A stretch of 61,797 nt of DNA, taken from positions 1 through 61,797 of IMG/VR virus record IMGVR_UViG_3300033153_006695; one strand, 5' to 3'. A program made the translations under genes and the position numbers. Source of the DNA: a virus (lineage: Duplodnaviria > Caudoviricetes). Below the pieces are notes generated by a model. The model did not search any database. It was not told the origin of the DNA and was given only the letters and a program-made list of their open reading frames with translations. Below are positions 8,553 through 61,797 of the stretch, in pieces; the stretch's first letter is position 1, and each line of letters starts with the position of its first letter.

Positions 8553-8567
8553 CCTAAAAGTGATTGA

Positions 8568-10455: not shown

Positions 10456-10800
10456 ATGAAGACTTTGAAAGATTTTAAATGGTTTGAAACAGAGGTCACT
10501 GGTACTTTTCACGATGGTTTTGAATTTGAATTATATGAACGTTGTGATTGTGATGAAGTAGCTAATCTTCGGGATTTGTTCAATTCGCCTGAAATTCATG
10601 GTAAAAGATTAATTTTGTTAGATGATTTAAGACAATCAGCAATAGAATGGATAAAAGAATTACTAAAAAGGAATATAACAGTTATTCTTCCAGGGAGTTA
10701 TTTATATGCATTTAAACCAGAACTAAAAGAAGAATATAATTTGGCTGCAATTCAAATGATTCATTGCCTTTTCAACATAACGGAGGCTGATTTAAAATGA
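10456..10800 (+). CDS. MKTL/LRQSAI/FNITEDDLK paralog family protein 3
   Basis: MKTL, LRQSAIEWIKEL, FNITEADLK. Confidence 0.7.
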   Translation: MKTLKDFKWFETEVTGTFHDGFEFELYERCDCDEVANLRDLFNSPEIHGKRLILLDDLRQSAIEWIKELLKRNITVILPGSYLYAFKPELKEEYNLAAIQMIHCLFNITEADLK

Positions 10801-16682: not shown

Positions 16683-18029
16683 TTGGCATTAACAATCGAC
16701 TGGAAGCCCACCGCTAAACAATTAACTGCTTATAATATCCTAAACGACAAAACAACCACAGAATTATTATTCGGCGGAGGGGCAGGACCAGGAAAGACGT
16801 ATCTTGGTTGCGCGTGGCTAATCATATCATGCCTGAAATATCCCGGGTCAAGATGGCTCATGGGCAGGGCAGTCTTAAAGGCATTAAAGCAATCAACCTT
16901 ACTTACTTTTTTCGATATATGCCGTAGCTGGGGCTTGAAACAAGACGAAGCATATAAATACAATTCAATAGACGCAGTAATAACATGGTATAACGGCTCT
17001 GAAATATACTTGAAAGACCTAAAACTATATCCTACCGACCCTGAGTTTGATTGTCTGGGCAGTACCGAATATACAGGCGCATTAATAGACGAAGCATCTG
17101 AAGTACCGGTCAAAGCCAAAGAGATAGTAGCAACCAGGATAAGATACAAATTAGACGAATTTGGACTTATACCTAAATTATTGATAGTATCGAATCCATG
17201 TAAGAACTTTTTATATTCAGAATTCTTCAGACCGAACAGAGATGGTACAATAGAACCATATCGCAAATTCTTACCTGCTTTAGTCTATGATAATCCGTTT
17301 ATGCCGATACATTATATTAGAAACTTAGAGCGCGCAAAAAAAGAGACTCGTGAACGACTATTAAAAGGGAACTGGGATTATTCGAATGACCCCACAAAAC
17401 TATTCCTATATGACAAAATCATAGACCTATATACAAACAACGTCAAAAGAGGGCTAAGATACTGTATTGTAGACCAGGCAGGCAAAGGCACCGACAAAGC
17501 CGTAGTAGCGCTATGGGAAGGTTTCTATCTATACAAGATGTTAGTATTCGATGAAGGTATAAGCAGTATGCAACTAGATAAAATCCTACAAGATGAACAA
17601 ATACCTAGAAGCCGATGCTTGGCAGATGAAGACGGGGTAGGGTTCGGGCTAGTAAAAGACTTACCTGGAATAAAGGGATTTGTAAACAACGCAACGCCTA
17701 TCAAGGAATTCAAAGAAGCGCAGGACCAGGACAAAATCAAGACCAACTATGCGAATTTAAAAGCGCAATGCTGGGATGTGGCAGCCACTTATACAAATAA
17801 CGGTGAAGTAGGAATTTACAGGGATATTTCTGTAGAAGACAGAGAACTACTTACAGAAGACCTAGACCACATAAAACAAATAAACGTAGGCAAAGATCAG
17901 CCTTTTAGAGTTATAACCAAAGAAGAGCTTAAAAAAGAGATGGGTCGCAGTACAGACCGAGGCGATACGTTTATGATGCGCTTTTATTTTCCTTTGAGAC
18001 AACCATACAAGCCGTATATATCTGTATAA
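16683..18029 (+). CDS. terL: terminase large subunit
   Basis: GGGAGPGKT Walker A, LIDEASE Walker B, SNP coupling motif, nuclease acidic residues VDQA...D, STDRGD. Confidence 0.93.
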   Translation: MALTIDWKPTAKQLTAYNILNDKTTTELLFGGGAGPGKTYLGCAWLIISCLKYPGSRWLMGRAVLKALKQSTLLTFFDICRSWGLKQDEAYKYNSIDAVITWYNGSEIYLKDLKLYPTDPEFDCLGSTEYTGALIDEASEVPVKAKEIVATRIRYKLDEFGLIPKLLIVSNPCKNFLYSEFFRPNRDGTIEPYRKFLPALVYDNPFMPIHYIRNLERAKKETRERLLKGNWDYSNDPTKLFLYDKIIDLYTNNVKRGLRYCIVDQAGKGTDKAVVALWEGFYLYKMLVFDEGISSMQLDKILQDEQIPRSRCLADEDGVGFGLVKDLPGIKGFVNNATPIKEFKEAQDQDKIKTNYANLKAQCWDVAATYTNNGEVGIYRDISVEDRELLTEDLDHIKQINVGKDQPFRVITKEELKKEMGRSTDRGDTFMMRFYFPLRQPYKPYISV

Positions 18030-18833: not shown

Positions 18834-18904
18834 GCCGGACTCTTTCAAAGGCAGGAAAGCGCGCTTGTAACGCGCCAATACCAGTTCGAGTCTGGTGTCC
18901 GGCT
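18834..18904 (+). tRNA. tRNA-Thr(TGT), no encoded CCA
   Basis: GCCGGAC/GTCCGGC acceptor, GCGCG-CTTGTAA-CGCGC anticodon arm, ACCAG-TTCGAGT-CTGGT T-arm, U73 discriminator as in archaeal tRNA-Thr. Confidence 0.88.
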
Positions 18905-19157: not shown

Positions 19158-19574
19158 ATGAATGAAAATGAACTGAAAGAAATAATTGATCAACATAAAA
19201 TATATTTGGCGGATAAAACAAAAGGTAAACGCGCAGACCTTGGACGCGCAGACCTCACATGCGCAGACCTTGGAGGCGCAGACCTCAGATGCGCAGACCT
19301 CAGATGCGCAAACCTCAGAGGCGCAAACCTCAGAGGCGCAGACCTCAGAGACGCAGACCTTGGAGGCGCAAACCTCAGATGCGCAGACCTTGGAGGCGCA
19401 GACCTCAGATGCGCAGACCTTGGAGGCGCAAACCTCACATGCGCAGACCTCAGATGCGCAAACCTCAGATGCGCAAACCTTAATGTGAGTAATTCTGAGG
19501 GCTGTGTTATTAATTTTTCATCGAATGAATATGAACAGGCAAAACAATTTATTGAAGGATTGAATAAAAAATAA
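19158..19574 (+). CDS. pentapeptide repeat protein
   Basis: A(D/N)Lxx repeats encoded by 15-bp tandem units at about 19230-19480. Confidence 0.92.
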
Positions 19575-20870: not shown

Positions 20871-21137
20871 ATGACAATGAAGACAATAAATGAGATAAGT
20901 ATTCATATTGCAGGATTTGAAGAGGATGGTGAAATCAGTTATGCACCAAGAAAGGCATCTAATTATAAGAAAGAACTAAGACAATCAGCAATAGACGATA
21001 TAAAAGAACTACAAGAAAAAATTAAGAAAGTAGAGATTTGTGATTCTTTTAATTCGATGCCATCAGGAAGCACATATAGAGCGCAAATTGATTATATTCA
21101 AAGGAAATTCAACATAACAGAGGATGATTTGAAATGA
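20871..21137 (+). CDS. MKTL/LRQSAI/FNITEDDLK paralog family protein 4
   Basis: ELRQSAIDDIK, KFNITEDDLK; 36 bp identical to 5856-5891. Confidence 0.7.
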   Translation: MTMKTINEISIHIAGFEEDGEISYAPRKASNYKKELRQSAIDDIKELQEKIKKVEICDSFNSMPSGSTYRAQIDYIQRKFNITEDDLK

Positions 21138-21382
21138 ATGAGTTATTAGAGTTATATATTTCATTGATTATATTGTCAATAGGTATTATACTATCTCTGC
21201 AAAGTAGGATATGAATATAAAAAAATATTCAAAGGATATTTACTATTTATTATTCTTTTCATATATATGATGATATTACAGATTAATTATTTTGTGATAT
21301 ATCATTAATCAAATTCTAAATAATAAATACCACAAAAATAAAAGTCTAAATAATAAGTACTATCCAATATAACTATTTCTCT

Positions 21383-23257
21383 ATGCAGTTTAATCTATCT
21401 AAATTATTCTCTGAAAAACCAACAGGTAAACACGGATATATATCTTCTAAAAACGAAATTAAAGAAACATTCAAAGGCGAAGTTAACGATACACAAATCA
21501 ATTTCCCGAAATCGTTAGGCGCAGTACATCCATTCAGTTTTGAAGCTATGGAGAGCGTATATAAGACAATAGGTGTCATTAACGGCGGGATAAACAAAAT
21601 CACTGATTCGGTAGTTGGCGATTTCTCTTATACTACAAAATCAAAAGAATCAGACCAGATAATAGCTAATTTCATTAAGAATACTAATTTTACTTCCGTT
21701 CTAAGGGAATGGATCAGGGAAGGATTCTCGAAAGGTAACGGGTTCTTAGAATTAGACCTAGAAGGTAAGGGCATACAAGTCTTGAATGCAAATACGATGT
21801 ACGTTGTCCGTGATGATAAGGGAAACGTAACCGGCTATAACCAATGGATAGGCGATTTAAAGAGATATAAAAAAAACAAAAAAGAAGTAAATAACTTCAA
21901 ACCCAGACAGATTGCGCACTTGAGAATAAACAAAATAGCAGGCGAACCATACGGGATAGGCATAATATACCCCAACGAAAGAACAATAGAGAACATGGTA
22001 CTGAATGAACAGGATTTACAGAAACTCATAAGTAGAAAAGCAGGCGCGCCGATTCATGCTGCGGTAGGAATAGAAGGTCAAGCTGTAAATAATGAGTATG
22101 TTGACGCTTTCAAAGATAGCTTGCAGGTAATGAACAACCGCACCGAATGGGTAACTGATTCTAACGTGAAAATGAATGTGATAGACTTCGGACAGATTGG
22201 TAAAAACCTAACTGACGTACTGGATCATGACATGTTATTAGTCGCTTTCGGCATGGAAATACCAATAGTATTATTCGGCGGCGGTAATATCCCTGAAGGA
22301 CTGGCAAAAGCACAGTCTGAGATATTCCAAAGGAAAATGGCAGTAATCCAGGAAGAAATAGAGAGTATAATCGAAGAACATATATTCAAACCATTATTAG
22401 AAGAACACGGGAGTAATGAAGAAGTTGACTTTACATGGAACTTACCTGGCGAAGAGGAGATAAACAACAGGATAGACAGACTAACGAAACTAATCGAGAG
22501 CATGAACACATCAGAACCGCTTAGGAGAATGGCAGAGTTAGAGATAGCTAAATTACTGGACATGGAAGATGCGCATAACTATCTATCGAAACCCGAAAAG
22601 GAAAAACCGGAAGACCAAAATAAAGACCCTAAAAACGACAAATCCCCTAAAGACAACGACAAACCAAAAGAAGATCATCATTTTGAAATGCATAATGTAT
22701 ATACAGAATCAGAACGCGCAGAGACCGGCAAGATGAGCATCAAAGAGTTCTCTAACCTGAAAGAAAACAAGAAAATGACTTATTCTGATTATCTACGAGA
22801 TATAATTACTGTACTGAAAACAGATAAATTCGAGTTCCTAGCAGCAACAAATAGTATCGACATAGCAAACGGCAAACTATCCGGCACACAGATAGAGAAA
22901 TTAAGAGATATATTACAGACAGCATTCAAAGAAAACCAGACAATCAAAGAGATAGAAAAAGAGATAACAGACAAAGTCAACCTGAAAGACGTAAAAAAAG
23001 ACGGGAAAGTAATAGTAAAATCTTCTATCAGACCAAACACAATCGCAAGAACAGAAACAATCAGAGCAGCTAATAAAGGACTGATCAAAACATACAAGAA
23101 AAATGATATTAAAAAAGTCAGATGGCTGGCAGCAGCTTCAGAGCGCACTTGTGAGACATGCAACACACTACACGGTCAGGTATTCGATATAAACACAGTT
23201 AATGCGCCTCCGATTCACCCAAAATGTCGTTGTAGTCTCTTGGCAATAATAACATAA
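21383..23257 (+). CDS. portal protein fused to MuF/SPP1-gp7-like minor head protein
   Basis: Portal-like GNGFLE, HLR...PYG; C-terminal IARTETIRA, W...CETC...HG, PPIHPKCRC. Confidence 0.88.
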   Translation: MQFNLSKLFSEKPTGKHGYISSKNEIKETFKGEVNDTQINFPKSLGAVHPFSFEAMESVYKTIGVINGGINKITDSVVGDFSYTTKSKESDQIIANFIKNTNFTSVLREWIREGFSKGNGFLELDLEGKGIQVLNANTMYVVRDDKGNVTGYNQWIGDLKRYKKNKKEVNNFKPRQIAHLRINKIAGEPYGIGIIYPNERTIENMVLNEQDLQKLISRKAGAPIHAAVGIEGQAVNNEYVDAFKDSLQVMNNRTEWVTDSNVKMNVIDFGQIGKNLTDVLDHDMLLVAFGMEIPIVLFGGGNIPEGLAKAQSEIFQRKMAVIQEEIESIIEEHIFKPLLEEHGSNEEVDFTWNLPGEEEINNRIDRLTKLIESMNTSEPLRRMAELEIAKLLDMEDAHNYLSKPEKEKPEDQNKDPKNDKSPKDNDKPKEDHHFEMHNVYTESERAETGKMSIKEFSNLKENKKMTYSDYLRDIITVLKTDKFEFLAATNSIDIANGKLSGTQIEKLRDILQTAFKENQTIKEIEKEITDKVNLKDVKKDGKVIVKSSIRPNTIARTETIRAANKGLIKTYKKNDIKKVRWLAAASERTCETCNTLHGQVFDINTVNAPPIHPKCRCSLLAIIT

Positions 23258-25888: not shown

Positions 25889-26334
25889 AAATGGCAGTAG
25901 GAAACGCATTAGGAGCCGTATGTCTGTTTGACGGTGAAAACCCAAGAACATTTACAGGCAAAGCAAGAGAGACAATTTCAGGCGGTCAGTTTGTATATGT
26001 ATCCGGCGCAGATTCAACAGCACAGGTCGGGTCACAAGCATCAAGTTTCGCAGACGGCGACCTTGAAATAGCAATTAAAGATAAATACGAGATGTGCAAC
26101 GGACTAGCACTAACAAATACCGGAAGTGAAGGACTTGTAACAATCGCAACAAGAGGTAACTTCTTAATCAAAGCAGGCGGCGCTATTTCAGGCGGTCAGT
26201 TACTATGGTCTGAAGAGGATTGCGTACAAGCGATTTCCAGCACAGCAGTAGGCTCAGAGATGATAGGACACATTGGAAGGGCACTGACTAACGCGGGGAG
26301 CGAAGACTATTGTCTTGTCGCTTTGAATCTATAG
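25885..26334 (+). CDS. head decoration / cement protein (putative)
   Basis: Between protease and MCP; G/A-rich with IGRALT motif. Confidence 0.6.
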   Translation: MKMAVGNALGAVCLFDGENPRTFTGKARETISGGQFVYVSGADSTAQVGSQASSFADGDLEIAIKDKYEMCNGLALTNTGSEGLVTIATRGNFLIKAGGAISGGQLLWSEEDCVQAISSTAVGSEMIGHIGRALTNAGSEDYCLVALNL

Positions 26335-26345
26335 AGGTGAAAAAA

Positions 26346-27212
26346 ATGACATTCAACAGAATACAAGAATACATAACAACCGATACCGGCGTAGCAGGAA
26401 CATTACTCATACCGAAAGTTATTGCACCCATACTTCGTGACGAAGTAGACAAACATCTAATTCCAAAGGAACTATGCGCGATGTATTGGTCAGCATCACA
26501 GACTAAGAACTTCGGGTCAAGCTGGAACGTCAACCAAGTAGATCCCGATTCAATGGACATCCGGAAAGTCGGTGAAGGCGCAGAGATACCTATGGACGCA
26601 ATCGATACAGAAACCAGGGAACTAACACCTGTCAAATACGGGGTAGCTATCAGAATCACAAAAGAGATGATGGAAGACTCACAGTTTGATATGTTCCAAA
26701 GGAATATCAAATACGCAGGTAAACGTTTTGCAGAGAAAGAGACTGAACTTATCATAACCGCTCTGAATGCTACAACAAACGCAGTTACCGGCGGCGCTGC
26801 AATCACTATCGCTAATATCGCAGAGGGTATGAACTATCTGGAAAGATACGACTATTCTCCAACTGATATGCTGATAGGTGACGAAGTTCTACAGGATATG
26901 CGAAACATCGATACATTTGTAGAGGCAGACAAGGCAGGCAATACCGAGATGATAAAGACAGGATTCTTAGGGACTCTGTTCGGTATGAAATGCGCTAAGT
27001 TCAGCAGGAACGCAACACCAACACCAGGAACTTACTGCAAGTATGCCTATGTGATCGACAGGAACGAATCTTATACAATCGGCTATAAAAGAGATATAAC
27101 CGTTGAGAACTTCGACCTGCCTACATACGACATGTCTGGCGCAGCTATTACAATGAGGGTAGATGTGAAATACCTGAGAGACTACGCTACATGCGAGATA
27201 ACAACAACCTAA
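26346..27212 (+). CDS. major capsid protein (HK97 fold)
   Basis: LLIPK, VGEGAEIP, KYGVAIRITKEMMEDS; position after protease. Confidence 0.9.
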   Translation: MTFNRIQEYITTDTGVAGTLLIPKVIAPILRDEVDKHLIPKELCAMYWSASQTKNFGSSWNVNQVDPDSMDIRKVGEGAEIPMDAIDTETRELTPVKYGVAIRITKEMMEDSQFDMFQRNIKYAGKRFAEKETELIITALNATTNAVTGGAAITIANIAEGMNYLERYDYSPTDMLIGDEVLQDMRNIDTFVEADKAGNTEMIKTGFLGTLFGMKCAKFSRNATPTPGTYCKYAYVIDRNESYTIGYKRDITVENFDLPTYDMSGAAITMRVDVKYLRDYATCEITTT

Positions 27213-34902: not shown

Positions 34903-35964
34903 ATGGCACGGTATATCGGAGATCAGAACAAAAATGTAGGAATACACGAAAGTGGGACTTATGCGCATAATTGTGCAGGAACAGATGCAGTAGCGGGGAG
35001 TACATATTGGATAGGGCAGGTAACAGAAAACTCAATAGATGATGCTGAAAATCGGATTGAAGACAGGTACATGGGTACAGGAAAACGAACATACGACACA
35101 ATGGAAATGGGACCTAACGACGTAACTGGAACATTAACATACCACCCGCATGATATGAGACTGTTGTTCTATGCAATCGGGTCAATAGTGGAAGTATCTG
35201 GCGCAACAGCAACTACATGCACACACGCAGTAAGCGAAATTAATAGTAATGTATGGCAAAGCCCGTTTGTAAGCGGTACTAACACCCATCCGGCTCCTAT
35301 GTCTTTTACACTTGAAGATTCCAAACAATCACCAGGCACAGGCAGAAACTTCATAAGGACAATCAAAGGATGTACTACAAATGTAACTACATTGACTTTG
35401 GCACAAAGCGAGAAAGCAACAATAGACGTAGACTACATCGCAGAACATTTACTGCCAAGTTCAGGCACAACAACAACACTAGTTAATAGTGGTCTGTCTA
35501 CTGATGCCCTAAAGCAAGCATTAGCGCCTTATATGTGGGAACATTCATTGCTTACACTTGCAGGCAGTCCAATGGACACCGCAAAAGAAATCAGTCTTGA
35601 AATAAATAATAACATGACAGGTCCGCATTACAATAACGGCAGCAGAATAATTGGCATGCCTTATGGCGGCAACAAAGATTACACTCTGAACGTGACTATG
35701 GACTTGGACGGTCAGGATGCAATGTGGCTATACGAACAATACTACAAGGGCGGCAGTTCATTCAACGGAACTCTGGACATGAACGCAGATATAACCGCAG
35801 TCGGCAGCAAACACACAACATTAGTATTCAGTGGATGCGAAGTAACAGACATGCCTAATCCAAGTACAGCAGATGCAGAGACAACAGAAACCACACTAGA
35901 AATCAGACCGCAAACGGTGGCAGGAAGTACATGGGACCGAACGCATAAATATAATCCGTGGTAG
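34903..35964 (+). CDS. major tail tube protein
   Basis: Position before chaperone and TMP; SLEINNN motif, beta-rich. Confidence 0.75.
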   Translation: MARYIGDQNKNVGIHESGTYAHNCAGTDAVAGSTYWIGQVTENSIDDAENRIEDRYMGTGKRTYDTMEMGPNDVTGTLTYHPHDMRLLFYAIGSIVEVSGATATTCTHAVSEINSNVWQSPFVSGTNTHPAPMSFTLEDSKQSPGTGRNFIRTIKGCTTNVTTLTLAQSEKATIDVDYIAEHLLPSSGTTTTLVNSGLSTDALKQALAPYMWEHSLLTLAGSPMDTAKEISLEINNNMTGPHYNNGSRIIGMPYGGNKDYTLNVTMDLDGQDAMWLYEQYYKGGSSFNGTLDMNADITAVGSKHTTLVFSGCEVTDMPNPSTADAETTETTLEIRPQTVAGSTWDRTHKYNPW

Positions 35965-36557: not shown

Positions 36558-38657
36558 ATGGGAATAAGCGATATTCTAGGCGGGAAAGGAGTATCCGTAG
36601 TCATATCTGCGACTGACAACTTCAGCCGGACATTTAGCGCGGCACGGATGCAGATGGCGGCTTTCAAACCGGCAGGACTGGCAATAGCGGCTGGAATGGC
36701 GGCGGTAGGTGTTGGGATGGCTGCGGTTGCTGCGTCTACTCTTAAAACTGCTATAGACTTTGAAAGCGCTTTTACAGGTGTACAAAAGACAGTAGAACTA
36801 ACCGCAGAAGAGTTTGACGTTTTGAATACTAGCCTTAAGAACATGACAAAAACCGTACCTAAAAGCTATGTCGAGCTAGCTTCTATTGCCGAAATTGCCG
36901 GTCAGTTGGGGGTCGAAGGGGTAGATAATATAACTAAATTCACTAAGACTATAACAGACATAAGTGAATCTACAAACCTGACCGCAGAAAACGCAGCGAC
37001 TTCTTTTGCGCGAATCGCTAATGTGATGGGCGAACCGATAGCTAATGTTGACCGGATGGGTGCTGCGGTTGTAGATTTAGGTAATAATTTTGCGACTTCA
37101 GAGACAGAGATTGTAGAAATGTCTATGCGTGTTATGGGTGCGGGGAAAACAATAGGTATGTCTACACAAGACGTATTCGGTATGAGTGCTGCTTTAAGTT
37201 CTTTAGGTATTCAATCTGAAATGGGTGGCAGTGCAATATCGAGAGCCATGATAACTATGTCTAAAGCCGTTTCTAATGGTGCAGACGGATTTAAACAATT
37301 TTCAGAGAAATCAGGGCTATCTCTAGATGAAATTAATTTATTAATGACGAAAAGCACACCTGCCGCGTATCAATACCTACTAAATAATACAGAAATGACT
37401 ACAGAAGAGATTAATAGATTACTAAAAGACACAACATTAGAAGCGTCAAGCGATTTAATGAATTTTGCGACGGTTTCGGGTCTTTCAGCAGATGAATTCT
37501 CAAAGTTATGGAGTACAAAACCCGTAGAGGCAATGTCGAAAGTAATTATGGGTCTTAAAAAGACAAATGAAGAGGGCGGTAATACTTTCGGAGTATTAGA
37601 AGACCTTGATTTAAGTGCGATACGAATTTCAGATACAATGTTAAGGTTAGCGGGTTCTGAAGGCGGGATAACTGCTGCGGTAGAGAAATCTAATCAGGCA
37701 TGGGAAGAAAACACAGCGCTATCAGAAGAAGCAAATAAAAGATACGACACATTAGCATCACAAATCCAAATGACAAAAAACGAATTTACGCTTATGGCGT
37801 TGGCGATTGGCGAGAAATTAATGCCGATAGTCAGAGATACATTACTTCCATTCATTCGTGACCAGTTAATACCGACTATGGGACGTATTTTCGATAAGAT
37901 AGTCCCGATTATGAGAGATGACGTGATTCCATTATTCGAGAAATATCTTGTACCGGCAATAGGTAAATTAATAGACTTCACAAAATCACTAAAAACATCC
38001 TGGGATAACCTTAGTCCTAGTATGCAAACCGCGATTAAGCTAGGATTATTAGCTACAGGCGCAGTATTAGTGCTTACAGCCGGACTAACATTATTAGGGA
38101 TTGCTTTTGGGTTGTTGATGTCACCTATTCTGTTAATTGCATTAGCTTTCGGAGCGCTTGTAACTCTGGGCTATTATCTCTGGAAGAACTGGGATATTAT
38201 AAAAGAAGAAGGTATTAGAATTTGGAACAAAATAAAAGAAAATATTGTTTCGGCGGTTCAATCATTGGGCGATAAATTTATATGGCTAAAAGACAGCGTT
38301 CTTACACCTGTTTGGGATACTTTTAAAAATATATATGGCTGGTTAAAAAACAAGTTTCTTGGCGTTATAGGTAGCGTTATTGATAAAATCAAAAGTGTGA
38401 TTAGTTTAGCCCGGGAAGCAGGTGGCGGAATAGCATCAGCCGCAGGGAAAGTATTAGGGAGTAGACAAACGGGTGGATACATACCGCAAACAGGATTATA
38501 CAATTTACATCAAGGAGAATATGTAGTTCCTAAAAGAGAAGTAAACACAAGCGGTAGAAATATCATCATAAATATAGACAATCTAAACGGATTCAATGCC
38601 GGAGATATAGCTGAAGGATTACAAGAAGAACTGGAAAAAAAGATAAGTATGGGATAA
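36558..38657 (+). CDS. tape measure protein (TP901-like core)
   Basis: AIDFESAFTGVQKT, LGNNFATSE, GSAISR; periodic W/F C-terminal region. Confidence 0.93.
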   Translation: MGISDILGGKGVSVVISATDNFSRTFSAARMQMAAFKPAGLAIAAGMAAVGVGMAAVAASTLKTAIDFESAFTGVQKTVELTAEEFDVLNTSLKNMTKTVPKSYVELASIAEIAGQLGVEGVDNITKFTKTITDISESTNLTAENAATSFARIANVMGEPIANVDRMGAAVVDLGNNFATSETEIVEMSMRVMGAGKTIGMSTQDVFGMSAALSSLGIQSEMGGSAISRAMITMSKAVSNGADGFKQFSEKSGLSLDEINLLMTKSTPAAYQYLLNNTEMTTEEINRLLKDTTLEASSDLMNFATVSGLSADEFSKLWSTKPVEAMSKVIMGLKKTNEEGGNTFGVLEDLDLSAIRISDTMLRLAGSEGGITAAVEKSNQAWEENTALSEEANKRYDTLASQIQMTKNEFTLMALAIGEKLMPIVRDTLLPFIRDQLIPTMGRIFDKIVPIMRDDVIPLFEKYLVPAIGKLIDFTKSLKTSWDNLSPSMQTAIKLGLLATGAVLVLTAGLTLLGIAFGLLMSPILLIALAFGALVTLGYYLWKNWDIIKEEGIRIWNKIKENIVSAVQSLGDKFIWLKDSVLTPVWDTFKNIYGWLKNKFLGVIGSVIDKIKSVISLAREAGGGIASAAGKVLGSRQTGGYIPQTGLYNLHQGEYVVPKREVNTSGRNIIINIDNLNGFNAGDIAEGLQEELEKKISMG

Positions 38658-48370: not shown

Positions 48371-48630
48371 AGATGACCCTGAAATTAATTGTTGTAATTG
48401 CCGTGGTTGTGATTGTGTTAGGATGCACTGACGAAGCGAGTTGGACAGACGGTTTTGATGTGACACGCCTGTATGAAGTGACAGTCTACGGTTCTCAAAA
48501 TACTACTTATGGAACTCCACATCAAAGAAATAGCTTAAAACACCCTAAAATCACACTTCAAACCGAAAGATATATAAAGGTCAATGAACATATAAAGAGT
48601 ATTGGTAGAACAACACCAAAAAAACTTTGA
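48364..48630 (+). CDS. lipoprotein-like hypothetical protein
   Basis: Hydrophobic N-terminus ending VLGC. Confidence 0.45.
   Translation: MLKMTLKLIVVIAVVVIVLGCTDEASWTDGFDVTRLYEVTVYGSQNTTYGTPHQRNSLKHPKITLQTERYIKVNEHIKSIGRTTPKKL
48562..48603 (+). promoter_or_regulatory. repeated archaeal BRE/TATA promoter, copy 1
   Basis: ACCGAAAGATATATAAAGGTCAA.GAACA.ATAAAGAGTATT; 40/42 identical to 50776-50817. Confidence 0.7.
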
Positions 48631-48633
48631 GAG

Positions 48634-48867
48634 ATGATAAAAATGGATGTACAAAAAATATCTGAATTGACTGATATAGAACTTATAACTGAGATGCAAT
48701 TTCAAATGATTGTATCCAAAAAATTTCCAAATAGAAATATTATTCAGACAAGAGAGTTTTTCTTTGATGATTTGAAAACTGAAGGTAAAAATAGAAACAT
48801 ACAATTAACAGACGAACAAAAAAAAGAAATTGGAGATAAAGTAAAAACAATGATTGATTCAATTTGA
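48634..48867 (+). CDS. hypothetical protein
   Basis: ORF after the promoter. Confidence 0.55.
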   Translation: MIKMDVQKISELTDIELITEMQFQMIVSKKFPNRNIIQTREFFFDDLKTEGKNRNIQLTDEQKKEIGDKVKTMIDSI

Positions 48868-48987
48868 GGAAACTTTCCTCGCCATTTTTGCTATTGAAAT
48901 TAGCATTACAAACGGATGGGTGGCGGGGTTTCCATCAAAAACAAAAAGGAGATGAACAAAATGAGCATAAAAGATATGGTAAACAAT

Positions 48988-49529
48988 TCAAACGGCGCAA
49001 TCCACGTAAGATATTATAAAGGGAGTTGCGACGTACACACAAAAGACGAAAGGAGATGAGATTTGAATATGAGTACAAGAGATTCATGTGTGGATTGTGA
49101 TTGTATAATTCATGTAGATAATGAATTTGAAGCTTATGAGGAAGACGGCACAGATGCGCATTGGGATGATTCAAGAAAGAGATGGCAATGTCAATCATGT
49201 AAGAAGTGTAATAAAGCAGTGAGCGTGATATGATATTAAAAAAGGTAAGGTTATTGTAATGGAATCCTGTCTTATTTGTGGTGTGCATGAACCACAATGT
49301 GCAGGGTGCAAAAGATATTTTCGAGATAATCAAACAATATATTGCGATGATGAACCGTATGACTCAAAAGCCACAGGAAAACATTATTGTTTGAAATGTA
49401 AAAGAAAAACAAATCTGAAGCAGTGATTTAAGATGAAACAGCAAAGGTTAGCAACTCAAACGGCGCAATCCACGTAAGATATTATAAAGGGAGTTGCGAC
49501 GTACACACAAAAGACGAAAGGAGATGAGA
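48988..49529 (+). repeat. 74-bp identical direct repeat (48988-49061 and 49456-49529) flanking two Zn-finger microgenes (49069-49233, 49259-49426)
   Basis: Exact duplication ending in the RBS GGAGATGAGA. Confidence 0.92.
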
Positions 49530-49853
49530 ACTATGGAATTATCAATCAATGAAAAACTAGAAGTAAACGAATTCACAAAAAAATACCCGACAATAACAAA
49601 CATATTTACTATTCTTGAACGGAGAATAGATGACATGGATACTGAACTATCAAACCTGAAAGAAGAAGTATCGCAACTAAAACGGTGAATCTTATGACCA
49701 CAGAAAACAAAAAAGATGGAATGGTGGGTGTATTAGAAGCACTCGAAAAAACAGGAAAACTCGACGAGATAAAACAAGCAATAAGAAACGAGCGAATAGA
49801 GAGAGACATGAGAACACTAAAAAGACACAGGAGATAAAAGGAGGAGATAAGAC

Positions 49854-50150
49854 ATGAAAGGAAAACTATTAGGACAAAGAGAGCACCCATTAAACCTGGA
49901 GATTTTCAACAAACAATACAGAATCCAGCTACGAAAAAGAGGCATACACCCAAGCATAGCAGACAGTGAACATTATACGGAATATCTGAACTCAGGAAAG
50001 CGGGTAGATATGAACGTAGAAAAAATGAAATACGAAGCTAAAAAAGCAGCAGAATCAGAAACCAGAAGAATACAAGACTTATGCCCGTCATTGATCCCAG
50101 ACGTAGCAAAATATACACGCGAATTCGTGGACAGAGTTGAGAGAATATGA
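49854..50150 (+). CDS. hypothetical protein
   Basis: GGAGGAG RBS. Confidence 0.55.
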   Translation: MKGKLLGQREHPLNLEIFNKQYRIQLRKRGIHPSIADSEHYTEYLNSGKRVDMNVEKMKYEAKKAAESETRRIQDLCPSLIPDVAKYTREFVDRVERI

Positions 50151-50332
50151 ATATACTCGACTGGCTAAAAAACAACAAGAACCATGCCGTACTTTGGCAA
50201 TGCACAAACTGCGACTCATTCAAAGCAACACCAGAAAACCTATGTTGTTGCGACAAACCACATTCAAAATCAGTAAAACGAAAACTATACTCTGAACACG
50301 ACATAAAAATAGCACTAAAGAAATGTAAATGA
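50147..50332 (+). CDS. small Cys-rich protein
   Basis: CTNC, CCC. Confidence 0.5.
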   Translation: MNILDWLKNNKNHAVLWQCTNCDSFKATPENLCCCDKPHSKSVKRKLYSEHDIKIALKKCK

Positions 50333-50354
50333 ATCACAGAAAGAGGTTTGAATC

Positions 50355-50775: not shown

Positions 50776-50817
50776 ACCGAAAGATATATAAAGGTCAACG
50801 AACAAATAAAGAGTATT
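50776..50817 (+). promoter_or_regulatory. repeated archaeal BRE/TATA promoter, copy 2
   Basis: See 48562-48603. Confidence 0.7.
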
Positions 50818-55766: not shown

Positions 55767-56345
55767 ATGAACAACAGAGAGCGCACAAAAAAACAAGATA
55801 CATTGCATTTATATGTGGCAATAAGACGGAATAAAGAAAATAGTGACGGTCAAGAAATATGTTTCCGTGAAGTCATAAGAGATAATAAGACCTCATTAGA
55901 CGCTTTAGAGGCACGTATAAAATCGATTTCAGGAACTTGGAGAATATATAAGACTGTAAACTCAAGAGACATAGAGAAAGCAAGAGTATTATTATTGATG
56001 AAACTTATAGAGAATCCAGAAAATTCATATAAAGTAGACACCATTTGGAAAACATGCCTATTACAACCAAAATGTAGAGCAGAACATAAACTATTATGGG
56101 ATGTAGATGGAAATATAACTCTTACAGATTTGGGAAAGATATTTTCAGATAGAAAAGTTTTTATAAAACAATATATTAAATCTCCAAATGGCTATAATGT
56201 TGTGACTGAGTTATGTGATACTAGATTATTCAAAAAAGAAGATATAATTAAAGAATATTCATCAATAAATGATTTCGGATTCAGTAGAGATGGTGTAATG
56301 TTCATAAAACGATTTGTGATTGAAAATGAAAGAAATAATGACTAA
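55767..56345 (+). CDS. hypothetical protein (DxD + SPNGY motifs, AEP-like tentative)
   Basis: RIYKTVNSRD, LWDVD, KSPNGY. Confidence 0.5.
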   Translation: MNNRERTKKQDTLHLYVAIRRNKENSDGQEICFREVIRDNKTSLDALEARIKSISGTWRIYKTVNSRDIEKARVLLLMKLIENPENSYKVDTIWKTCLLQPKCRAEHKLLWDVDGNITLTDLGKIFSDRKVFIKQYIKSPNGYNVVTELCDTRLFKKEDIIKEYSSINDFGFSRDGVMFIKRFVIENERNND

Positions 56346-57345
56346 AGTAAATGAAATGATGCATCCGTTTAAGGTTTATGCCGTTGGTGGTTGTGTCAGA
56401 GATTATATTATGAAAAAAGAACCAAAAGATTATGATTTCACTACAAATGCAAAACCAGACGAGACACAACAAAAAATAAAAGAATCTGGAAGAAGAGCAT
56501 ATATGACTGGTAAAAAGTTTGGAACTCTTGGATGTAAACTTAACGGTCAGATGATAGAAATAACAACATTCAGGGGAGAAAAGTATGAACAAAATTGTAG
56601 GAAACCGCAAGTAGAGTATCTTAATAATCTAAATGCGGATTTAGACCGAAGAGATTTCACTATAAACGCTATGGCTATGAGATTACACAATGATAAATTA
56701 AAAATTATAGATAATCATGGCGGCAGAGACGACATAAATAATAAGATTATAAGATGCGTGGGTAACTCTAAAATAAGATTCAAAGAAGACCCATTACGAA
56801 TACTAAGAGCTATACGTTTTGCAACAAGATTCAAATTTAAAATAGAAAGTAAAACATCAGATAGAGTAACCAAAATGTCTCCAATGTTATTAACCATATC
56901 AAAAGAAAGATGGATGCAAGAAATTGATAAAATACTCATGGATGATAATGTTGAGTTTGGACTTATTGAGCTATGGGCGAGTAATTGTTTTAGATATATG
57001 ATCCCAGAATTACATCTTCAAATGGATTATAAACAAAACTCAAAGTATCATAGTCATGAATTATGGTTTCATACAACGTATGTAGTTAATGCAGTACCTA
57101 AAGACATAAACATGAAATGGGCGGCATTATTGCATGATATTGCGAAACCGTTTGTATGTAAAGAGAATCTAAAGACAGGATATAATCACTTTATTGACCA
57201 CGAAAAGTTAGGTGCTGATATTGTGGAGAAATTAGCAAGACATCTACACTGGTCGAATGATAGAAGAGAAATCGTAAAAGAGTTAGTATATAATCATTTA
57301 GATGACGAGTCTCCACTAAAAATATATGATGATATGGGGAAATAA
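56320..57345 (+). CDS. cca: class II CCA-adding enzyme / poly(A) polymerase family nucleotidyltransferase with HD domain
   Basis: VGGCVRD, DYD, RRDFTINA, EDPLRILRAIRF, LLHDIAK. Confidence 0.88.
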   Translation: MKMKEIMTKVNEMMHPFKVYAVGGCVRDYIMKKEPKDYDFTTNAKPDETQQKIKESGRRAYMTGKKFGTLGCKLNGQMIEITTFRGEKYEQNCRKPQVEYLNNLNADLDRRDFTINAMAMRLHNDKLKIIDNHGGRDDINNKIIRCVGNSKIRFKEDPLRILRAIRFATRFKFKIESKTSDRVTKMSPMLLTISKERWMQEIDKILMDDNVEFGLIELWASNCFRYMIPELHLQMDYKQNSKYHSHELWFHTTYVVNAVPKDINMKWAALLHDIAKPFVCKENLKTGYNHFIDHEKLGADIVEKLARHLHWSNDRREIVKELVYNHLDDESPLKIYDDMGK

Positions 57346-58589
57346 TGAATATAATCCTGATAACTCAACCGGAACAAGCCATGCTTGCAGAAGCCGGGGA
57401 TCGTCCAGCTATGGGGGCGTTATATCTGGCAGCAGCATTAAGAGCCGCAGGACATAGACCTACTATTTGCGACCTGAACCATGACAGCTATTATACCCTA
57501 AAAGAAAAGATAGAGTTCATAAAGCCGGAATTCATTACAATAACAACAACTACTCCTTATCTTAATTGGTGCAAGAACTTCGCAGAACACTTAAGACACA
57601 ACTACCCTGAAATAAAACTAATCGCCGGCGGTCCTCATGCAAGTGCAGACCCGGACTCACTAAAAGAACAGTTTGATTATATAGTAGTCGGTGAAGGTGA
57701 GAATGCGATAGTCGATATAGTAGAGAACAAAGTAAAAAAACAGATAGTAAAATATCCGCTAATAAAAGACATAGACACTATTCCTATACCTGCATGGGAC
57801 TTAATACCAGTCGAGAGATACGGCATAATCCAGGAGGGTATAAGAACCGGAGTAATACTATCTAGTAGGTCATGCCCGTATAAATGTTTCTTCTGCGGTA
57901 AGACCATCATGGGCGAGGGCTACAGGAAACACAGTGTAGACCGGATTATAGAAGAGATGCGAATCTTAAGAGACAATTACGGCTTTAAGTCGTTTTATTT
58001 TGTTGATGATTGTTTCACAATCGACAAAAAAAGAGTATTAGAATTCTGTAAGAGAATGAAAAAAGAACAACTAGGATCATTTAGGATAACAAGCAGAACA
58101 GACACCATAGACGATGAGATGATGCGCGAATTGAAACTAGCAGGCATACGGTCTATATCTTACGGGTTAGAACACCTGGACAATAAAGTACTAAAGACCA
58201 TCCAAAAAAGCAACACCGCCGAGAACAATCTAAAAGCCGTCAGACTGGCTAAGAAATACGATGTAGGAGTCAGAGGTAGTTTTGTTGTAAATCTACCGGG
58301 CGCTACCAGAGAGACCGTACATGATTGTTTGAAGTTTGCAATGAATTATAGTTTAGAATATGCGGATTTTTACAATTTGATAGTTTATCCTGGAACACCT
58401 GCATATAAGAATCCAGAAAAATATAATATAAAAATAATATCTAAAGATACAAATTTTTATCAAACTAGTGGGAAAACAAATGTAGACACCGAATATTTCA
58501 CTGCAAGTGACGCTGAAAAACTTACAACAGAAGTTAATAATGAATGGCGCAAATTTAAAAAAACAAAATGTCCTTGGGAATTAGAATGA
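57345..58589 (+). CDS. B12-binding (class B) radical SAM enzyme
   Basis: GGPHAS, VGEGE, SRSCPYKCFFC, YPGT. Confidence 0.9.
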   Translation: MNIILITQPEQAMLAEAGDRPAMGALYLAAALRAAGHRPTICDLNHDSYYTLKEKIEFIKPEFITITTTTPYLNWCKNFAEHLRHNYPEIKLIAGGPHASADPDSLKEQFDYIVVGEGENAIVDIVENKVKKQIVKYPLIKDIDTIPIPAWDLIPVERYGIIQEGIRTGVILSSRSCPYKCFFCGKTIMGEGYRKHSVDRIIEEMRILRDNYGFKSFYFVDDCFTIDKKRVLEFCKRMKKEQLGSFRITSRTDTIDDEMMRELKLAGIRSISYGLEHLDNKVLKTIQKSNTAENNLKAVRLAKKYDVGVRGSFVVNLPGATRETVHDCLKFAMNYSLEYADFYNLIVYPGTPAYKNPEKYNIKIISKDTNFYQTSGKTNVDTEYFTASDAEKLTTEVNNEWRKFKKTKCPWELE

Positions 58590-58609
58590 AAAATAGAATT
58601 TGTTTGTTT

Positions 58610-58792
58610 GTTTCAATCCTTATTATACTGGAATATGAATAGAAACTAAACACCCGAAAGAGATTATGGCGCGCAGAATGAAGTTTCAATCCTTATTATA
58701 CTGGAATATGAATAGAAACAGAAAACAGTCACACCGCCGAAACTCACTACACGCTGTTTCAATCCTTATTATACTGGAATATGAATAGAAAC
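58610..58792 (-). CRISPR. mini CRISPR array: 3 identical 37-bp repeats and 2 spacers of 36 bp
   Basis: Repeat (minus strand) GTTTCTATTCATATTCCAGTATAATAAGGATTGAAAC at 58610-58646, 58683-58719 and 58756-58792; spacers 58647-58682 and 58720-58755. Confidence 0.95.
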
Positions 58793-58904
58793 CCTACAAA
58801 AAAATGGTTCATTTGCCTATATCTCACCAAATACTGCTTCATTCCATACACAGAAATCCATATATCATTATTAGTTTCAATCTTTTATAAAGACATGAAA
58901 AAAG

Positions 58905-59072
58905 TTATAATAAGTTTCGAGGGTTGCCGAATCATAACGAATCGGTACTACTCGATTTTGGGCTGTTGAAATCAGCCGTGCAGTTGTACATACCTCGCCT
59001 GCGGAGTACGCTATGAAGTAGTATGACTCAACTGCGCTATCCTTCATCATATCCAACACATAGGTCGGACAC
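58905..59072 (-). ncRNA. Cas12f tracrRNA
   Basis: Same layout as the Un1Cas12f1 tracrRNA: GGCTG-ATTTCAA-CAGCC loop complementary to the repeat 3' TTGAAA, TCGAG...AACCCTCGAAAC, anti-repeat CTTATTATA. Confidence 0.82.
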
Positions 59073-59077
59073 TCATA

Positions 59078-60691
59078 TTAGGAACATGATTCTGCTAATT
59101 GTTCTATGTCTATATTCGATATGTTCTTTGAAGCATTATAATCGGCATCACAGGTCACTTCACAATTACAGCATTTGAATTTCGGGAAGTTATGTGCCTT
59201 ACGGTAATCGAATGTGAACTCTTTGTTGCGTACATTACAACTATGACATATCTGTGACGTGTATTTCGGGTTGATGATTTTGATGCTGATGCCTGCCTCA
59301 ATCAATTTCTTGTCAATCTGGTCTTGTAATCTGGCATAACACCAATACATCCTCTGGAATTTGAAGAAGTCTGTATCGCCCTCTCTATCATCTCTGTCTT
59401 TCAATGATTTCAGGTCTTCACGTTGGACTATTCCGACATTATTCCTGACAAAGAACGCCACAACTTCACTCGCCCATTTCTCGATTATCTTCTTACGTCG
59501 TTGCTGGTCTTTCTGCGATGCAATCTCACTGATTTTGAGCTTGTTCTTCGAGCCGTGACCTGTTCTGGAATATCTATTCCGCTTCATGAAACTACGTCTG
59601 CGTGATAATGCCTGGACATTATAAGCCATCACTTCATTACCATTTATACTCAATCTTTTAAGTGAATTACTGACCGCACATACAATCGGTTTCGTCATAC
59701 CTATATCAATCCCGCCAACTATGTTCTGGTCAAGAGTGTGTTTCTTAGGCGGGAATGTAGCGACAATATTAACAAACCACTGCGTCTTCTCGCCTATCTT
59801 CTTACCTCTATTGAGTTCAAGCCATCCTATTTTATACTTATTTCTTAATGATTCCTGTATTGCTGGTGTTTCAAGTTTCTTGTATTTTGGTTGCTTGATT
59901 ATGCAATCGTCATTATAATGATTCTGTGAATATTCGAGCCATTCTTTTTGTAGGTCGCCGTTCATAATACGCCTTATTTCGGAGTCTGTTCCTTCGTCAC
60001 GCATCCAGCTATTATTCTTCATTCGACGTTTGGTTGATATAATCAGCTTAATATGTTTTTTCTTGATAGTATCTGCCAATTCAAAAACATAGTATTTCTT
60101 ACCTGATTTTTTGTTCTTCTCGATTTTGTAAGTATATTGTGGTACGGTGATTGTAATCACAAACTCGCCATTAAGATTATCGATTAGGAATGCCTTATCC
60201 TTATCGGAATTTGACTGTTTGTACATAGGTATTGGGAACGTCTGTCTTTTGGCAGAGGGTAGTGATATTTTGGCACAATATAAGTCAAACGCTTTGGTCT
60301 TACTGAAATTAGACTGTACTTTTGTCCTGACACCTAACGCCATACATGAATCCTTTATCTCTTTATATGCCTCTTTATATACAATTGAACTCAATAATTT
60401 AGCAACAGAATCCTCTTTGTTTTGGTTGATTATCTTCTCTATATATAGTTTACTGATACCTTTATTATAAGATAAAGCAATCTTCTCCTGAAAGAACCCC
60501 ATCAGCGCATAGAACTCTTTTTTTGTAACGATTTCAGGGTTGTCTTTTTTGAGTTTGTCATAGTATGTGTAACCTAATAATCCCTTACCACCATCTTTTT
60601 TATTCTGTTCTTTATCTTTGATAAGTTGTTGCTCAATTTTCTCACCCATATAAGGTCTAAGCACCTTCAAAGATAATGTTTTTGTTATCAT
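59078..60691 (-). CDS. cas12f1: type V-F effector Cas12f1 (Cas14a), RuvC intact
   Basis: Collinear with recalled Un1Cas12f1 motifs: ITKTLSLKVLRPY, FPIP, DEGTDSEI, GGIDIG (D), GHGSKNKLK, REDL (E), CHSC/CCNC, ADYNA (D). Confidence 0.93.
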   Translation of the reverse strand: MITKTLSLKVLRPYMGEKIEQQLIKDKEQNKKDGGKGLLGYTYYDKLKKDNPEIVTKKEFYALMGFFQEKIALSYNKGISKLYIEKIINQNKEDSVAKLLSSIVYKEAYKEIKDSCMALGVRTKVQSNFSKTKAFDLYCAKISLPSAKRQTFPIPMYKQSNSDKDKAFLIDNLNGEFVITITVPQYTYKIEKNKKSGKKYYVFELADTIKKKHIKLIISTKRRMKNNSWMRDEGTDSEIRRIMNGDLQKEWLEYSQNHYNDDCIIKQPKYKKLETPAIQESLRNKYKIGWLELNRGKKIGEKTQWFVNIVATFPPKKHTLDQNIVGGIDIGMTKPIVCAVSNSLKRLSINGNEVMAYNVQALSRRRSFMKRNRYSRTGHGSKNKLKISEIASQKDQQRRKKIIEKWASEVVAFFVRNNVGIVQREDLKSLKDRDDREGDTDFFKFQRMYWCYARLQDQIDKKLIEAGISIKIINPKYTSQICHSCNVRNKEFTFDYRKAHNFPKFKCCNCEVTCDADYNASKNISNIDIEQLAESCS

Positions 60692-60777
60692 AACATTATA
60701 TTATCCACACATCTTTATATATCTATTTATCAATTAATAAGGTATAGATATATATATTTATTTATTAATTAATAGGT

Positions 60778-60942
60778 ATGAATGAAAAGCAAAAATTCAA
60801 GGATGTTCTTATATATCCTGTTGATTGGATATTTCTGAATAATGTTAAATTTAAAACCGGCAAGAAACGTCTTGCGGATGTCATACATGACCTGATAAAA
60901 AATAAACAGACTATCAGACAAAGAAATAACTTGGTTGAATAA
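60778..60942 (+). CDS. small putative DNA-binding protein divergent from cas12f (not in ORF track)
   Basis: 54 aa, ...LADVIHDLI RHH-like helix; shares an AT-rich bidirectional promoter. Confidence 0.45.
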   Translation: MNEKQKFKDVLIYPVDWIFLNNVKFKTGKKRLADVIHDLIKNKQTIRQRNNLVE

Positions 60943-61062: not shown

Positions 61063-61134
61063 GCAAGTATGGTCTAGCGGTCAATGATATAAGGGTCGCG
61101 CCCTATGACGTTGGTTCAAATCCAACTACTTGCA
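61063..61134 (+). tRNA. tRNA with aberrant anticodon arm (nominal CGC anticodon; identity uncertain)
   Basis: GCAAGTA/TACTTGC-A acceptor, TAGCGG D-loop, GTTGG-TTCAAAT-CCAAC T-arm; anticodon stem mispaired. Confidence 0.7.
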
Positions 61135-61299: not shown

Positions 61300-61797
61300 A
61301 TGAACAAGCTAAACTGCGTAATTATGGGTGAAAATTGTGAAAGATTCTTACCTATGTGCATTAAAAGCGTACAAGACGCAGATAATATTATTTATTGTGA
61401 TGGCGGAAGTACAGATAAAACAATAACTATCGCAATGTCATATACATTAAGAGGTATATATGATGATGCAATCCAACCAGATGATGTAGAAACATTTTTT
61501 ATTATAGAAAATAAATACAATCAAGAAGATAAAGGTATGAACGGCAAGCAGCGTAATTTCTATTTGGACTACCTTAAACAGCACCACATGGGCGAATACG
61601 CGTTAATTTTGGATGCGGACGAGGTCTTAGATACAGGCGGAATACAAAAAATAAGAGACTTCATCGACAACCCACCAGAGATGATGACCGATATAAGCTC
61701 TGTCAAGATGCGCCATTTTATCGAAAATCTCGGACGCGAAGACGCAACCAAAAAAGAGCATTACGTACCGCATAGACTATTCAAAATCAAAGAAGAC
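61300..61797 (+). CDS. N-terminal GT2 domain of the GT2-methyltransferase fusion (continues at 1..930)
   Basis: DGGSTDKT, RNFYL, LDADE; ATG at 61300 is in frame with 61684. Confidence 0.85.
   Translation, partial: MNKLNCVIMGENCERFLPMCIKSVQDADNIIYCDGGSTDKTITIAMSYTLRGIYDDAIQPDDVETFFIIENKYNQEDKGMNGKQRNFYLDYLKQHHMGEYALILDADEVLDTGGIQKIRDFIDNPPEMMTDISSVKMRHFIENLGREDATKKEHYVPHRLFKIKED
61684..61797. repeat. Terminal direct repeat, copy 2
   Basis: Identical to 1-114. Confidence 0.97.

Follow-up and report, generated by a model that had tools for sequence, protein, structure and literature searches.

Effector gene and protein of the locus

A compact CRISPR locus lies at positions 58610 to 60691 on the minus strand of a 61,797-nt virus record from IMG/VR (IMGVR_UViG_3300033153_006695; this whole stretch is referred to below as the window). 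It consists of a cas12f1 gene, a trans-activating CRISPR RNA (tracrRNA) directly downstream and an array of three repeats and two spacers. From the sequence we regard it as highly probable that these parts make up a genuine, intact type V-F1 module of the virus, because the effector is homologous over its full length, the catalytic and zinc-binding residues are present, the tracrRNA was recovered by a model blind to the window and shows compensatory changes, the repeats are identical and the composition is viral.

The coding sequence (59078..60691, minus strand) specifies a 537-amino acid (aa) protein, placed in the Cas14a/Un1Cas12f1 clade by its open reading frame (ORF), PDB match, Pfam domain, residues and position in a tree. 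A phmmer search of PDB sequences matched Cas14a.1 (7c7l_A, E = 4.7e-91) and Cas12f1 (7l48_A, E = 9.4e-91), with the alignment falling into three stretches (query residues 2-31, 42-253 and 286-531). BLASTP against the protein of the natural Un1Cas12f1 locus (L006, which itself matches 7l48 with E = 0) gave 192 identities over 571 positions (34%; E = 4e-104). Residues D329, E425, R497 and D517, representing the RuvC D/E/D triad and the lid arginine, align with D326, E422, R490 and D510 of 7l48, and the C-terminal CxxC...CxxC zinc ribbon (C482, C485, C507 and C510) is intact and kept across relatives. The original prediction for this locus, made from the DNA alone, was therefore right in calling a 537-aa Cas12f1 with an intact RuvC triad. 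Its intact zinc finger holds for the C-terminal ribbon only: the N-terminal Cys/His-rich insert of Un1Cas12f1, presumably its “ZF domain”, has no counterpart and appears as a gap when the window protein is aligned to that of L006. To call the protein a candidate miniature editor is fair, although its 537 aa give it no size advantage over Un1Cas12f1 (a 529-aa chain). Pfam recognised only the Cas12f1-like TNB domain (2.4e-16), and the NCBIfam TnpB and Cas12f2 models both scored under their cut-offs.

Close relatives of the protein are scarce. A word-indexed search of 5.8 billion proteins returned 11 sequences at E ≤ 0.001, the window protein included, while an exhaustive phmmer search of 1.84 billion representative proteins returned 1247 at that threshold and just 23 at E ≤ 1e-30. 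Among these representatives a single homologue, P0002, exceeds 50% identity (approximately 70–71%), which indicates that the lineage has been kept at the protein level. A tree of 18 rows pairs the window protein with P0002 at a support of 100/100, inside a 100/100 clade of 16 Cas14a-type proteins, and leaves the deeper branching order unsettled. Viral relatives in IMG/VR were absent with a single-protein query, and an alignment query yielded three distant matches confined to the C-terminal part (22–30% identity). Deposited phages gave TnpB-level matches only, covering the C-terminal 23–46% of the protein at no more than 34.4% identity. Another IMG/VR virus of 64 kb (L013) has a CRISPR-like array (6 copies, 6935-7238) just upstream of a gene (7353-8714) for a distant Cas12f/TnpB-like protein, 30% identical over the C-terminal half.

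The tracrRNA and its predicted pairing with the repeat

A covariance model (R1) was trained on five related loci (L006, L004, L001, L010 and L002), the window being excluded, and contains 32 base pairs, 14 of them with a compensatory change. Scanned over both strands of the 61,797 nt, R1 gave a single match, on the minus strand at 58881..59007 (43.2 bits, E = 2.8e-9), which marks the tracrRNA core; the 5′ part of the RNA probably extends to about 59035, as the 5′ arm of stem 2 lies at 59029-59035. The tracrRNA predicted directly downstream of the effector was thus recovered independently of the window sequence. When the window was scanned together with 12 loci, R1 found its five training sequences, the window and L008. 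In the alignment of these seven, 88.6% of cells are paired, compared with 27.8–43.4% when the partners are slid, a comparison made somewhat favourable by the fitting of the alignment to the model. On the same seven model-fitted sequences, 17 of the 32 pairs have changed on both sides, and the covariation score was reached by none of 500 shuffles. The minimum free energy fold of 58895-59070 (-50.1 kcal/mol, z = -2.84) leaves the stem-3 loop open. The region 3′ of cas12f aligns with the equivalent interval in related loci, and because L006 encodes Un1Cas12f1 itself, the homology extends to the tracrRNA region of the solved system.

Stem 3 is a hairpin, GGCTG-ATTTCAA-CAGCC (58961..58977, minus strand), whose loop sequence TTTCAA (58966-58971) is complementary to TTGAAA at the 3′ end of the repeat and would form the short repeat/anti-repeat stem. 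The loop ATTTCAA pairs with a repeat ending in GATTGAAAC in the window and L002, whereas in L010, L004, L006 and L001 the loop is CTTGCAT and the repeat ends in ATGCAAC. Across these six loci two compensatory changes therefore preserve a 6-bp short stem. The co-variation of loop and repeat noticed in the original prediction is confirmed by this contrast between the TTTCAA/TTGAAA type and the TTGCAT type, although as few as one or two evolutionary events may account for both loop types. Cas12f1 guides are described as having a short pseudoknot stem of 5–7 bp between repeat and anti-repeat (PMC11246509).

Stem 4 follows (TCGAG...CTCGA with an inner hairpin; 58917..58955, minus strand), and helix 5 is 100% paired in the seven sequences. 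Directly after stem 4 comes the long anti-repeat, CTTATTATA (9 nt; 58906..58914, minus strand), complementary to TATAATAAG within the repeat. A comparison of its duplex energy with that of shuffled repeats did not discriminate: 18 of 200 shuffles did as well for the window, and 61 of 200 for the validated L006 system. A run of T residues, CTTTTTTC (58897..58904, minus strand), stands directly behind the anti-repeat and is a possible 3′ end of the tracrRNA.

The array and candidate promoters

The array runs on the minus strand from a leader-proximal repeat (58756..58792) through spacer 1 (58720..58755), a second repeat (58683..58719) and spacer 2 (58647..58682) to a terminal repeat (58610..58646), which is not degenerate. 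As predicted, there are two spacers and three perfect repeats: the spacers are 36 nt long (50% and 44% GC, respectively), and the 37-nt repeats are 100% identical over the repeat proper.

A TATA-like motif, CTTTATAAAAG (58882..58892, minus strand), lies between the tracrRNA and the array, and the leader (58793..58873, minus strand) separates it from the first repeat. The sequence TC[C/T]TTATAAA aligns at this place in the window, L010, L004, L006 and L001, and the motif is a candidate promoter for the array. On the same strand, a degenerate partial copy of the repeat 3′ end, AAAGATTGAAAC, is present in the leader region at 58874..58885. A CreR-like autoregulatory role for this partial copy was considered and rejected: the sequence that follows it has no partial match to the cas12f promoter or to the rest of the genome, and no target in the virus genome.

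Upstream of cas12f, the motif GATATATAAAG (60713..60723, minus strand) ends 21 nt before the ATG, with no Shine-Dalgarno (SD) motif in between. Four exact copies occur in the window (45299+, 48569+, 50783+ and 60713-), and the copy before cas12f is a candidate promoter element resembling a B recognition element (BRE) and TATA box. A sigma-70 promoter and terminator scan of 58500-60900 gave fewer promoter-like sites than shuffled sequences, none of them usefully placed on the minus strand.

Absence of adaptation genes and comparison with cellular loci

Six-frame scans of the whole genome with models for Cas1, Cas2 and Cas4 (PF01867, PF09827 and PF01930) gave no match at E ≤ 1, and none of the 69 window ORFs scanned with Pfam is an adaptation gene, in agreement with what had been claimed; the same models were positive in 9–10 of 14 control genomes. 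With respect to subtype V-F1, the window has an effector homologous over its full length with RuvC site and zinc ribbon, an adjoining tracrRNA, predicted pairing of the repeat with it and an adjoining array. It lacks cas1-cas2-cas4 in the locus, a feature that is typical of cellular members and is not required for the effector subtype.

The gene content of related loci was read by Pfam on 39 of 58 listed ORFs, with the cas4 ORF scanned in L010 and L001. In L010, L001, L004 and L006, cas1-cas2 or cas1-cas2-cas4 stands directly upstream of cas12f, followed by tracrRNA and array; arrays were recognised in L010, L004 and L006, and the L001 contig ends after one repeat. The L002 contig begins with cas4, directly upstream of cas12f, and L008 has two-component regulators in place of cas genes. 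Arrays of the cellular relatives hold 6–26 repeats within the DNA fetched, with 18 in L006. As these relatives carry cas1-cas2-cas4 upstream, the viral locus corresponds to the standard cassette minus adaptation, with a minimal array.

Some of the related loci have features of their own. The context of L008 looks bacterial (a histidine kinase, LuxR-type regulators and cytochrome c peroxidases); its tracr-like match (9839-10003, 33.2 bits) lies approximately 420 nt downstream of the Cas12f relative, and the 17.4 kb fetched showed no array. L004 and L005 belong to one metagenome contig of 208,526 nt, in which 17,458 nt around cas1-cas2-cas12f-array are identical at both ends in inverted orientation, reflecting either terminal inverted repeats of great length or a fold-back artefact of the assembly. 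At L006 and L004, which are natural loci of the Un1Cas12f1 type, cas12f has a GC content of 0.36–0.38, compared with 0.54–0.55 in the surrounding fetched DNA, and the cassette looks foreign to its cellular contig.

Proposed role and spacer targets

We propose that a V-F1 interference module was captured by a tailed double-stranded DNA (dsDNA) virus and kept in working order without adaptation genes. By analogy with the family, array and tracrRNA would each be transcribed from a promoter of their own, and two stems would join each repeat to the tracrRNA, a long one of 9 bp and a short pseudoknot stem of 6 bp. On this guide, a Cas12f1 dimer would then find a 36-nt match flanked by a protospacer adjacent motif (PAM) in dsDNA, and a single RuvC site would cut; from its characterised relatives we infer homodimerisation on one guide and PAM-dependent dsDNA cleavage for the window protein. 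The setting suggests that the two guides would be aimed at non-self DNA, most likely that of a rival mobile element sharing the host cell, and that new spacers, if any are gained, would need Cas1-Cas2-Cas4 in trans from a host V-F locus. We consider a role of the module in conflict between elements an evenly balanced proposition.

Several results weigh against this proposal. The long anti-repeat is just 9 bp and AU-rich. Neither spacer matched a target. The virus itself has no match at ≤3 mismatches, which counts in favour of the proposal and bears out the earlier remark that the spacers do not match their own genome, and looser 20-mer scans were also empty. Exact 20-mers from either end of either spacer are absent from 2.9 million viral contigs of IMG/VR, and blastn against 50,697 deposited phage records gave, for both spacers, only partial chance matches at E = 5. 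The 21 fetched loci contain no spacer match at ≤10 mismatches, and at ≤3 mismatches both spacers are absent from 351 genomes that belong to the same phylum as G001, the closest cellular Cas12f relative. The spacer search that had been suggested as a route to targets and a PAM accordingly returned no protospacer in the virus, IMG/VR, phages, fetched loci or these 351 genomes; plasmids, the phylum of a second relative (G002) and large metagenome and genome collections lay outside it. No related virus with a matching sequence was found, and the sole close relative recovered (L019) stops before the locus. The spacers are also richer in GC (50% and 44%) than the virus (mean 36%), such that only 8.9% and 22%, respectively, of viral 36-mers are as GC-rich, which speaks weakly against close kin of the virus as targets.

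None of 401 and none of 371 small-genome genomes contained the full repeat at ≤3 mismatches, nor do its 3′ 22 nt recur elsewhere in IMG/VR. Since no cellular array with this repeat was found (772 genomes), adaptation in trans is without support, and the earlier statement that the locus borrows host adaptation machinery was not substantiated. The “compact weapon” of the original prediction fares better in part: a stand-alone, intact-looking V-F1 module is there, whereas neither spacer matched any of the viruses or cellular genomes searched. A mini-array that would use a host effector was also considered and rejected, as the virus has its own effector, the repeat is absent from the 772 genomes and the rest of IMG/VR, and there is no viral target.

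The same working module might instead be aimed at the host, with guides that cut or mark chromosomal DNA, for example in defence loci or during takeover of the cell. We think this unlikely. The GC content of both spacers, above that of the virus, and the lack of exact 20-mers in the viral contigs speak for it, and spacers of huge phages directed against host genes are described in print (PMC7162821). However, the 351 genomes gave no match, though the right host genomes may lie outside that set, and two spacers are too few for an argument from composition.

A further reading, to which we give somewhat less credence again, is that the cassette is an inert passenger, acquired from a cell together with the last two spacers of that donor, and that the virus makes no use of it. 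The missing targets and adaptation genes, the small number of spacers and the position in a variable accessory region, where L019 is without the neighbouring gene for a CCA-adding enzyme, would all fit. Yet the composition is fully ameliorated (see below) while the ORF, catalytic residues, tracrRNA helices, loop/repeat pairing and all three repeats are intact. As a long-resident unused cassette should decay, these intact parts count against an inert passenger.

Viral residence of the locus

Bases 1-114 of the window are an exact copy of 61684-61797, giving a direct terminal repeat of 114 nt. The record is classed under direct terminal repeats, and a printed completeness estimate nevertheless stands at 74; the claim of a complete genome is upheld by the former and not by the latter. 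The CRISPR locus sits between a B12-radical SAM gene (ending at 58589) and a GT2 glycosyltransferase gene (starting at 61267, and crossing the terminal repeat into 1-930). Both belong to a block of glycosyltransferase, radical-SAM and sugar-nucleotide enzyme genes, identified by Pfam, that extends from approximately 54.6 kb through the terminal repeat to about 12.9 kb, as the earlier description of an insertion into a glycosylation cluster implied.

The composition of cas12f is that of the virus. Its GC content is 0.367 (genome 0.364), and its tetranucleotide distance to the virus is 0.252, close to the mean for windows of the same size (0.26), 46% of which are as far; homologues from cellular loci lie at 0.317–0.399. 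In codon frequencies cas12f correlates with the virus at 0.79, a value inside the span covered by the viral genes themselves (0.66–0.91). Nearly all virus genes are on the plus strand, where cas12f has an AT skew of -0.223 and a GC skew of -0.111, the mirror image of the means for 22 large plus-strand genes (+0.224 and +0.098), so that, read along its own sense strand, the gene shares the purine skew of the other virus genes. None of nine other minus-strand ORF regions shows this mirror image (seven have plus-type AT skew and two are near zero), and the six minus ORFs whose upstream sequence was inspected have GTG or TTG starts and no SD motif. That cas12f is the only convincing minus-strand gene is thereby corroborated.

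A related viral contig, L019, is syntenic with the window over 50.9–58.0 kb at 70–84% nucleotide identity and breaks off within the radical-SAM gene that immediately precedes the CRISPR locus. It lacks a 192-aa ORF and the gene for a CCA-adding enzyme (window 55767-57345), from which it follows that the region varies between viral relatives.

These data make it very improbable that the assembly is a chimera in which part of a host CRISPR locus became attached to viral sequence. The metagenomic origin of the record and the completeness estimate of 74 despite terminal repeats could be read in that sense. However, the 2.2-kb block is flanked on both sides by viral genes of one glycosylation cluster, so a chimera would need two false joins; GC content, tetranucleotides, codon use and strand skew agree with the virus, from which homologues of cellular loci stand further off in tetranucleotide use; and DNA from a host should have come with cas1-cas2-cas4, which the cellular relatives carry.

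Least plausible of all is a TnpB-type nuclease of an IS200/IS605 transposon in place of a CRISPR effector: the NCBIfam guided_TnpB model (86.4 bits), PHROG “transposase” matches and the naming of P0002 as an “IS605 OrfB family transposase” in one source point that way, but the guided_TnpB score is under its cut-off of 100, the N-terminal half aligns with Cas14a.1, the TnpBs of deposited phages reach only the C-terminal part of the protein, and the presence of an array and a separate tracrRNA rules out such an element on anatomical grounds.

Comparison with known systems

Un1Cas12f1/Cas14a.1 (7C7L, 7L48; L006) shares with the window its protein architecture, catalytic residues, cas12f-tracr-array order, 37-nt repeat and spacers of approximately 36 nt. 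The tracrRNAs are homologous with the same stems, and both place the short repeat/anti-repeat stem in the stem-3 loop. The window differs in its 34% identity, the missing N-terminal Cys/His-rich insert, the switch of repeat and loop to TTGAAA/TTTCAA, a shorter tracr tail ending in a T-run, the lack of cas1-cas2-cas4, 3 repeats in place of 18, and a viral home.

CRISPR systems are described as rare in phages below 200 kb (review, PMC11656645). Class 2 systems encoded by huge phages, including new V-F subtypes, mostly lack Cas1, Cas2 and Cas4 according to PMC7162821, and a landfill survey describes viral Cas14 e/i/j/k, Cas12f2/f3 and one Cas12f1-like protein in a jumbo phage (PMC12607003). As presented in these two papers, the phage V-F/Cas14 variants and CasPhi resemble the window in combining a virus-encoded compact type V effector and an array with no Cas1, Cas2 or Cas4; they come mostly from phages above 200 kb, whereas the window virus has 61.7 kb and its effector falls in the tracrRNA-dependent Cas14a clade. 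The review further describes viral mini-arrays as targeting related viruses, and a plasmid type IV-A system as using host adaptation in trans (PMC11656645). In its account, the Saccharolobus portogloboviruses SPV1 and SPV2 carry, like the window, a mini-array of one or two spacers with a proposed part in virus–virus conflict, but use the host effector, have repeats identical to those of the host and spacers that match a sister virus; the window has its own effector and tracrRNA. The type I-F system of Vibrio phage ICP1 is likewise phage-encoded and put to offensive use, but it belongs to class 1, is complete down to its adaptation module and has targets that are known (PMC11656645).

In the literature covered we found no paper placing a tracrRNA-dependent system of the Cas14a clade on a virus, although a viral member of that clade may already be listed in print. 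Viral V-F systems without adaptation genes are already in print, and the present locus is a new example with no new mechanism; the understanding of how Cas12f1 systems work stays unchanged. What it adds is that the Cas14a/Un1Cas12f1 lineage, until now linked to cellular loci that have complete adaptation modules, is also present on a virus of ordinary size as a bare interference cassette. As a rare orthologue whose tracrRNA tail is naturally shorter and whose short repeat/anti-repeat stem pairs differently, it offers comparative material for the design rules of guide RNAs, and should targets or a host be found, it would give a handle on virus–virus or virus–host conflict in a poorly known community.

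Host of the virus

Evidence on the host points partly to a bacterium and partly to an archaeon. One tentative scenario, which we hold to be doubtful, is that a small-genome (DPANN-type) archaeon serves as host and that the virus acquired its V-F1 interference cassette from it. If so, this would be a complete tailed-virus genome for a group with barely known viruses, and a Cas14a-clade system would have been seen on a virus for the first time.

In favour of an archaeon, the five nearest cellular loci with context carry the cassette, and one of them is a metagenome-assembled genome (MAG) titled Woesearchaeota; L006 is 99.9–100% identical to L011, a contig titled Candidatus Woesearchaeota archaeon. 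L010, labelled “bacterium”, encodes beside its cas operon an archaeal aIF-2 (TIGR00491, 676 bits, above cut-off) and a PRK13764-type archaeal ATPase, and this 0.5-Mb genome is probably an archaeon with the wrong label. A viral fragment of 9894 nt (L021, contig 32 of G772), binned in a small-genome archaeal-type MAG of the same phylum as a cellular Cas12f relative, has a terminase 39% identical to that of the window, a portal-MuF fusion, an HK97 capsid protein and a fragment of UDP-glucose dehydrogenase; no Cas12f was found in the G772 genome. The TATA-like motif before the array also stands in the archaeal loci, and a BRE/TATA-like motif precedes the SD-less cas12f ATG.

Against an archaeon, the terminase is just as close, at 40–43% identity, to those of phages of Bacteroidota (Cellulophaga, Flavobacterium and Bacteroides), the virus has a gene for a class II CCA-adding enzyme of bacterial type, a single genome out of 201 from one of the two phyla and none out of 301 from the other contained a terminase relative, and some clade members stand in bacterial contexts (L008, and L012 by its title). 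Bacteroidota make little use of SD motifs, and since SD-like motifs precede 36 of 72 virus starts (background 15%), a Bacteroidota host fits poorly. The portal matches listed are to haloarchaeal tailed viruses at 23% identity, with Clostridium phages the largest group by record count, and the capsid protein is uninformative on the host domain.

Other features of the virus genome

Gene identities from Pfam and PHROGs mark the virus as tailed, with a large terminase (16683-18029), a portal fused to a Mu-F-like domain (21383-23257), an HK97-type capsid protein (26310-27212), a tail tube (34903-35964) and a tape measure (36558-38657). No replication, integration or lysis gene was recognised among the 69 ORFs scanned with Pfam and 57 with PHROGs, which includes DNA polymerase, primase, helicase, integrase and lysin.

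The region from 44 to 54 kb is mostly without family matches, and within it 48400-50350 is a stretch of approximately 2 kb with no plus-strand ORF of at least 50 aa. Minus-strand ORFs there look spurious because their skew is plus-type, and the stretch may be a non-coding RNA or a regulatory or origin region. It contains a pair of 93-nt direct repeats (48969-49061 and 49437-49529, 92% identical) and a 42-nt element with GATATATAAAG (48562-48603), a second copy of which (50776-50817, 95%) lies about 0.4 kb past its end. Rfam places a tRNA at 61063-61134 (47.4 bits), to which ARAGORN gives no anticodon name (“cg”, with an odd loop), and ARAGORN reports a tRNA-Thr(TGT) at 18834-18904 that is below the Rfam gathering score. 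The gene for a pentapeptide-repeat protein (19158-19574) has a 15-nt tandem periodicity with 16 register-shifted copies. Two short conserved segments (55 nt and 34 nt, 69–94% identical) occur three times, at 5862-5981, 10628-10801 and 20977-21138; each occurrence ends at a start codon, and they look like duplicated gene-start modules.

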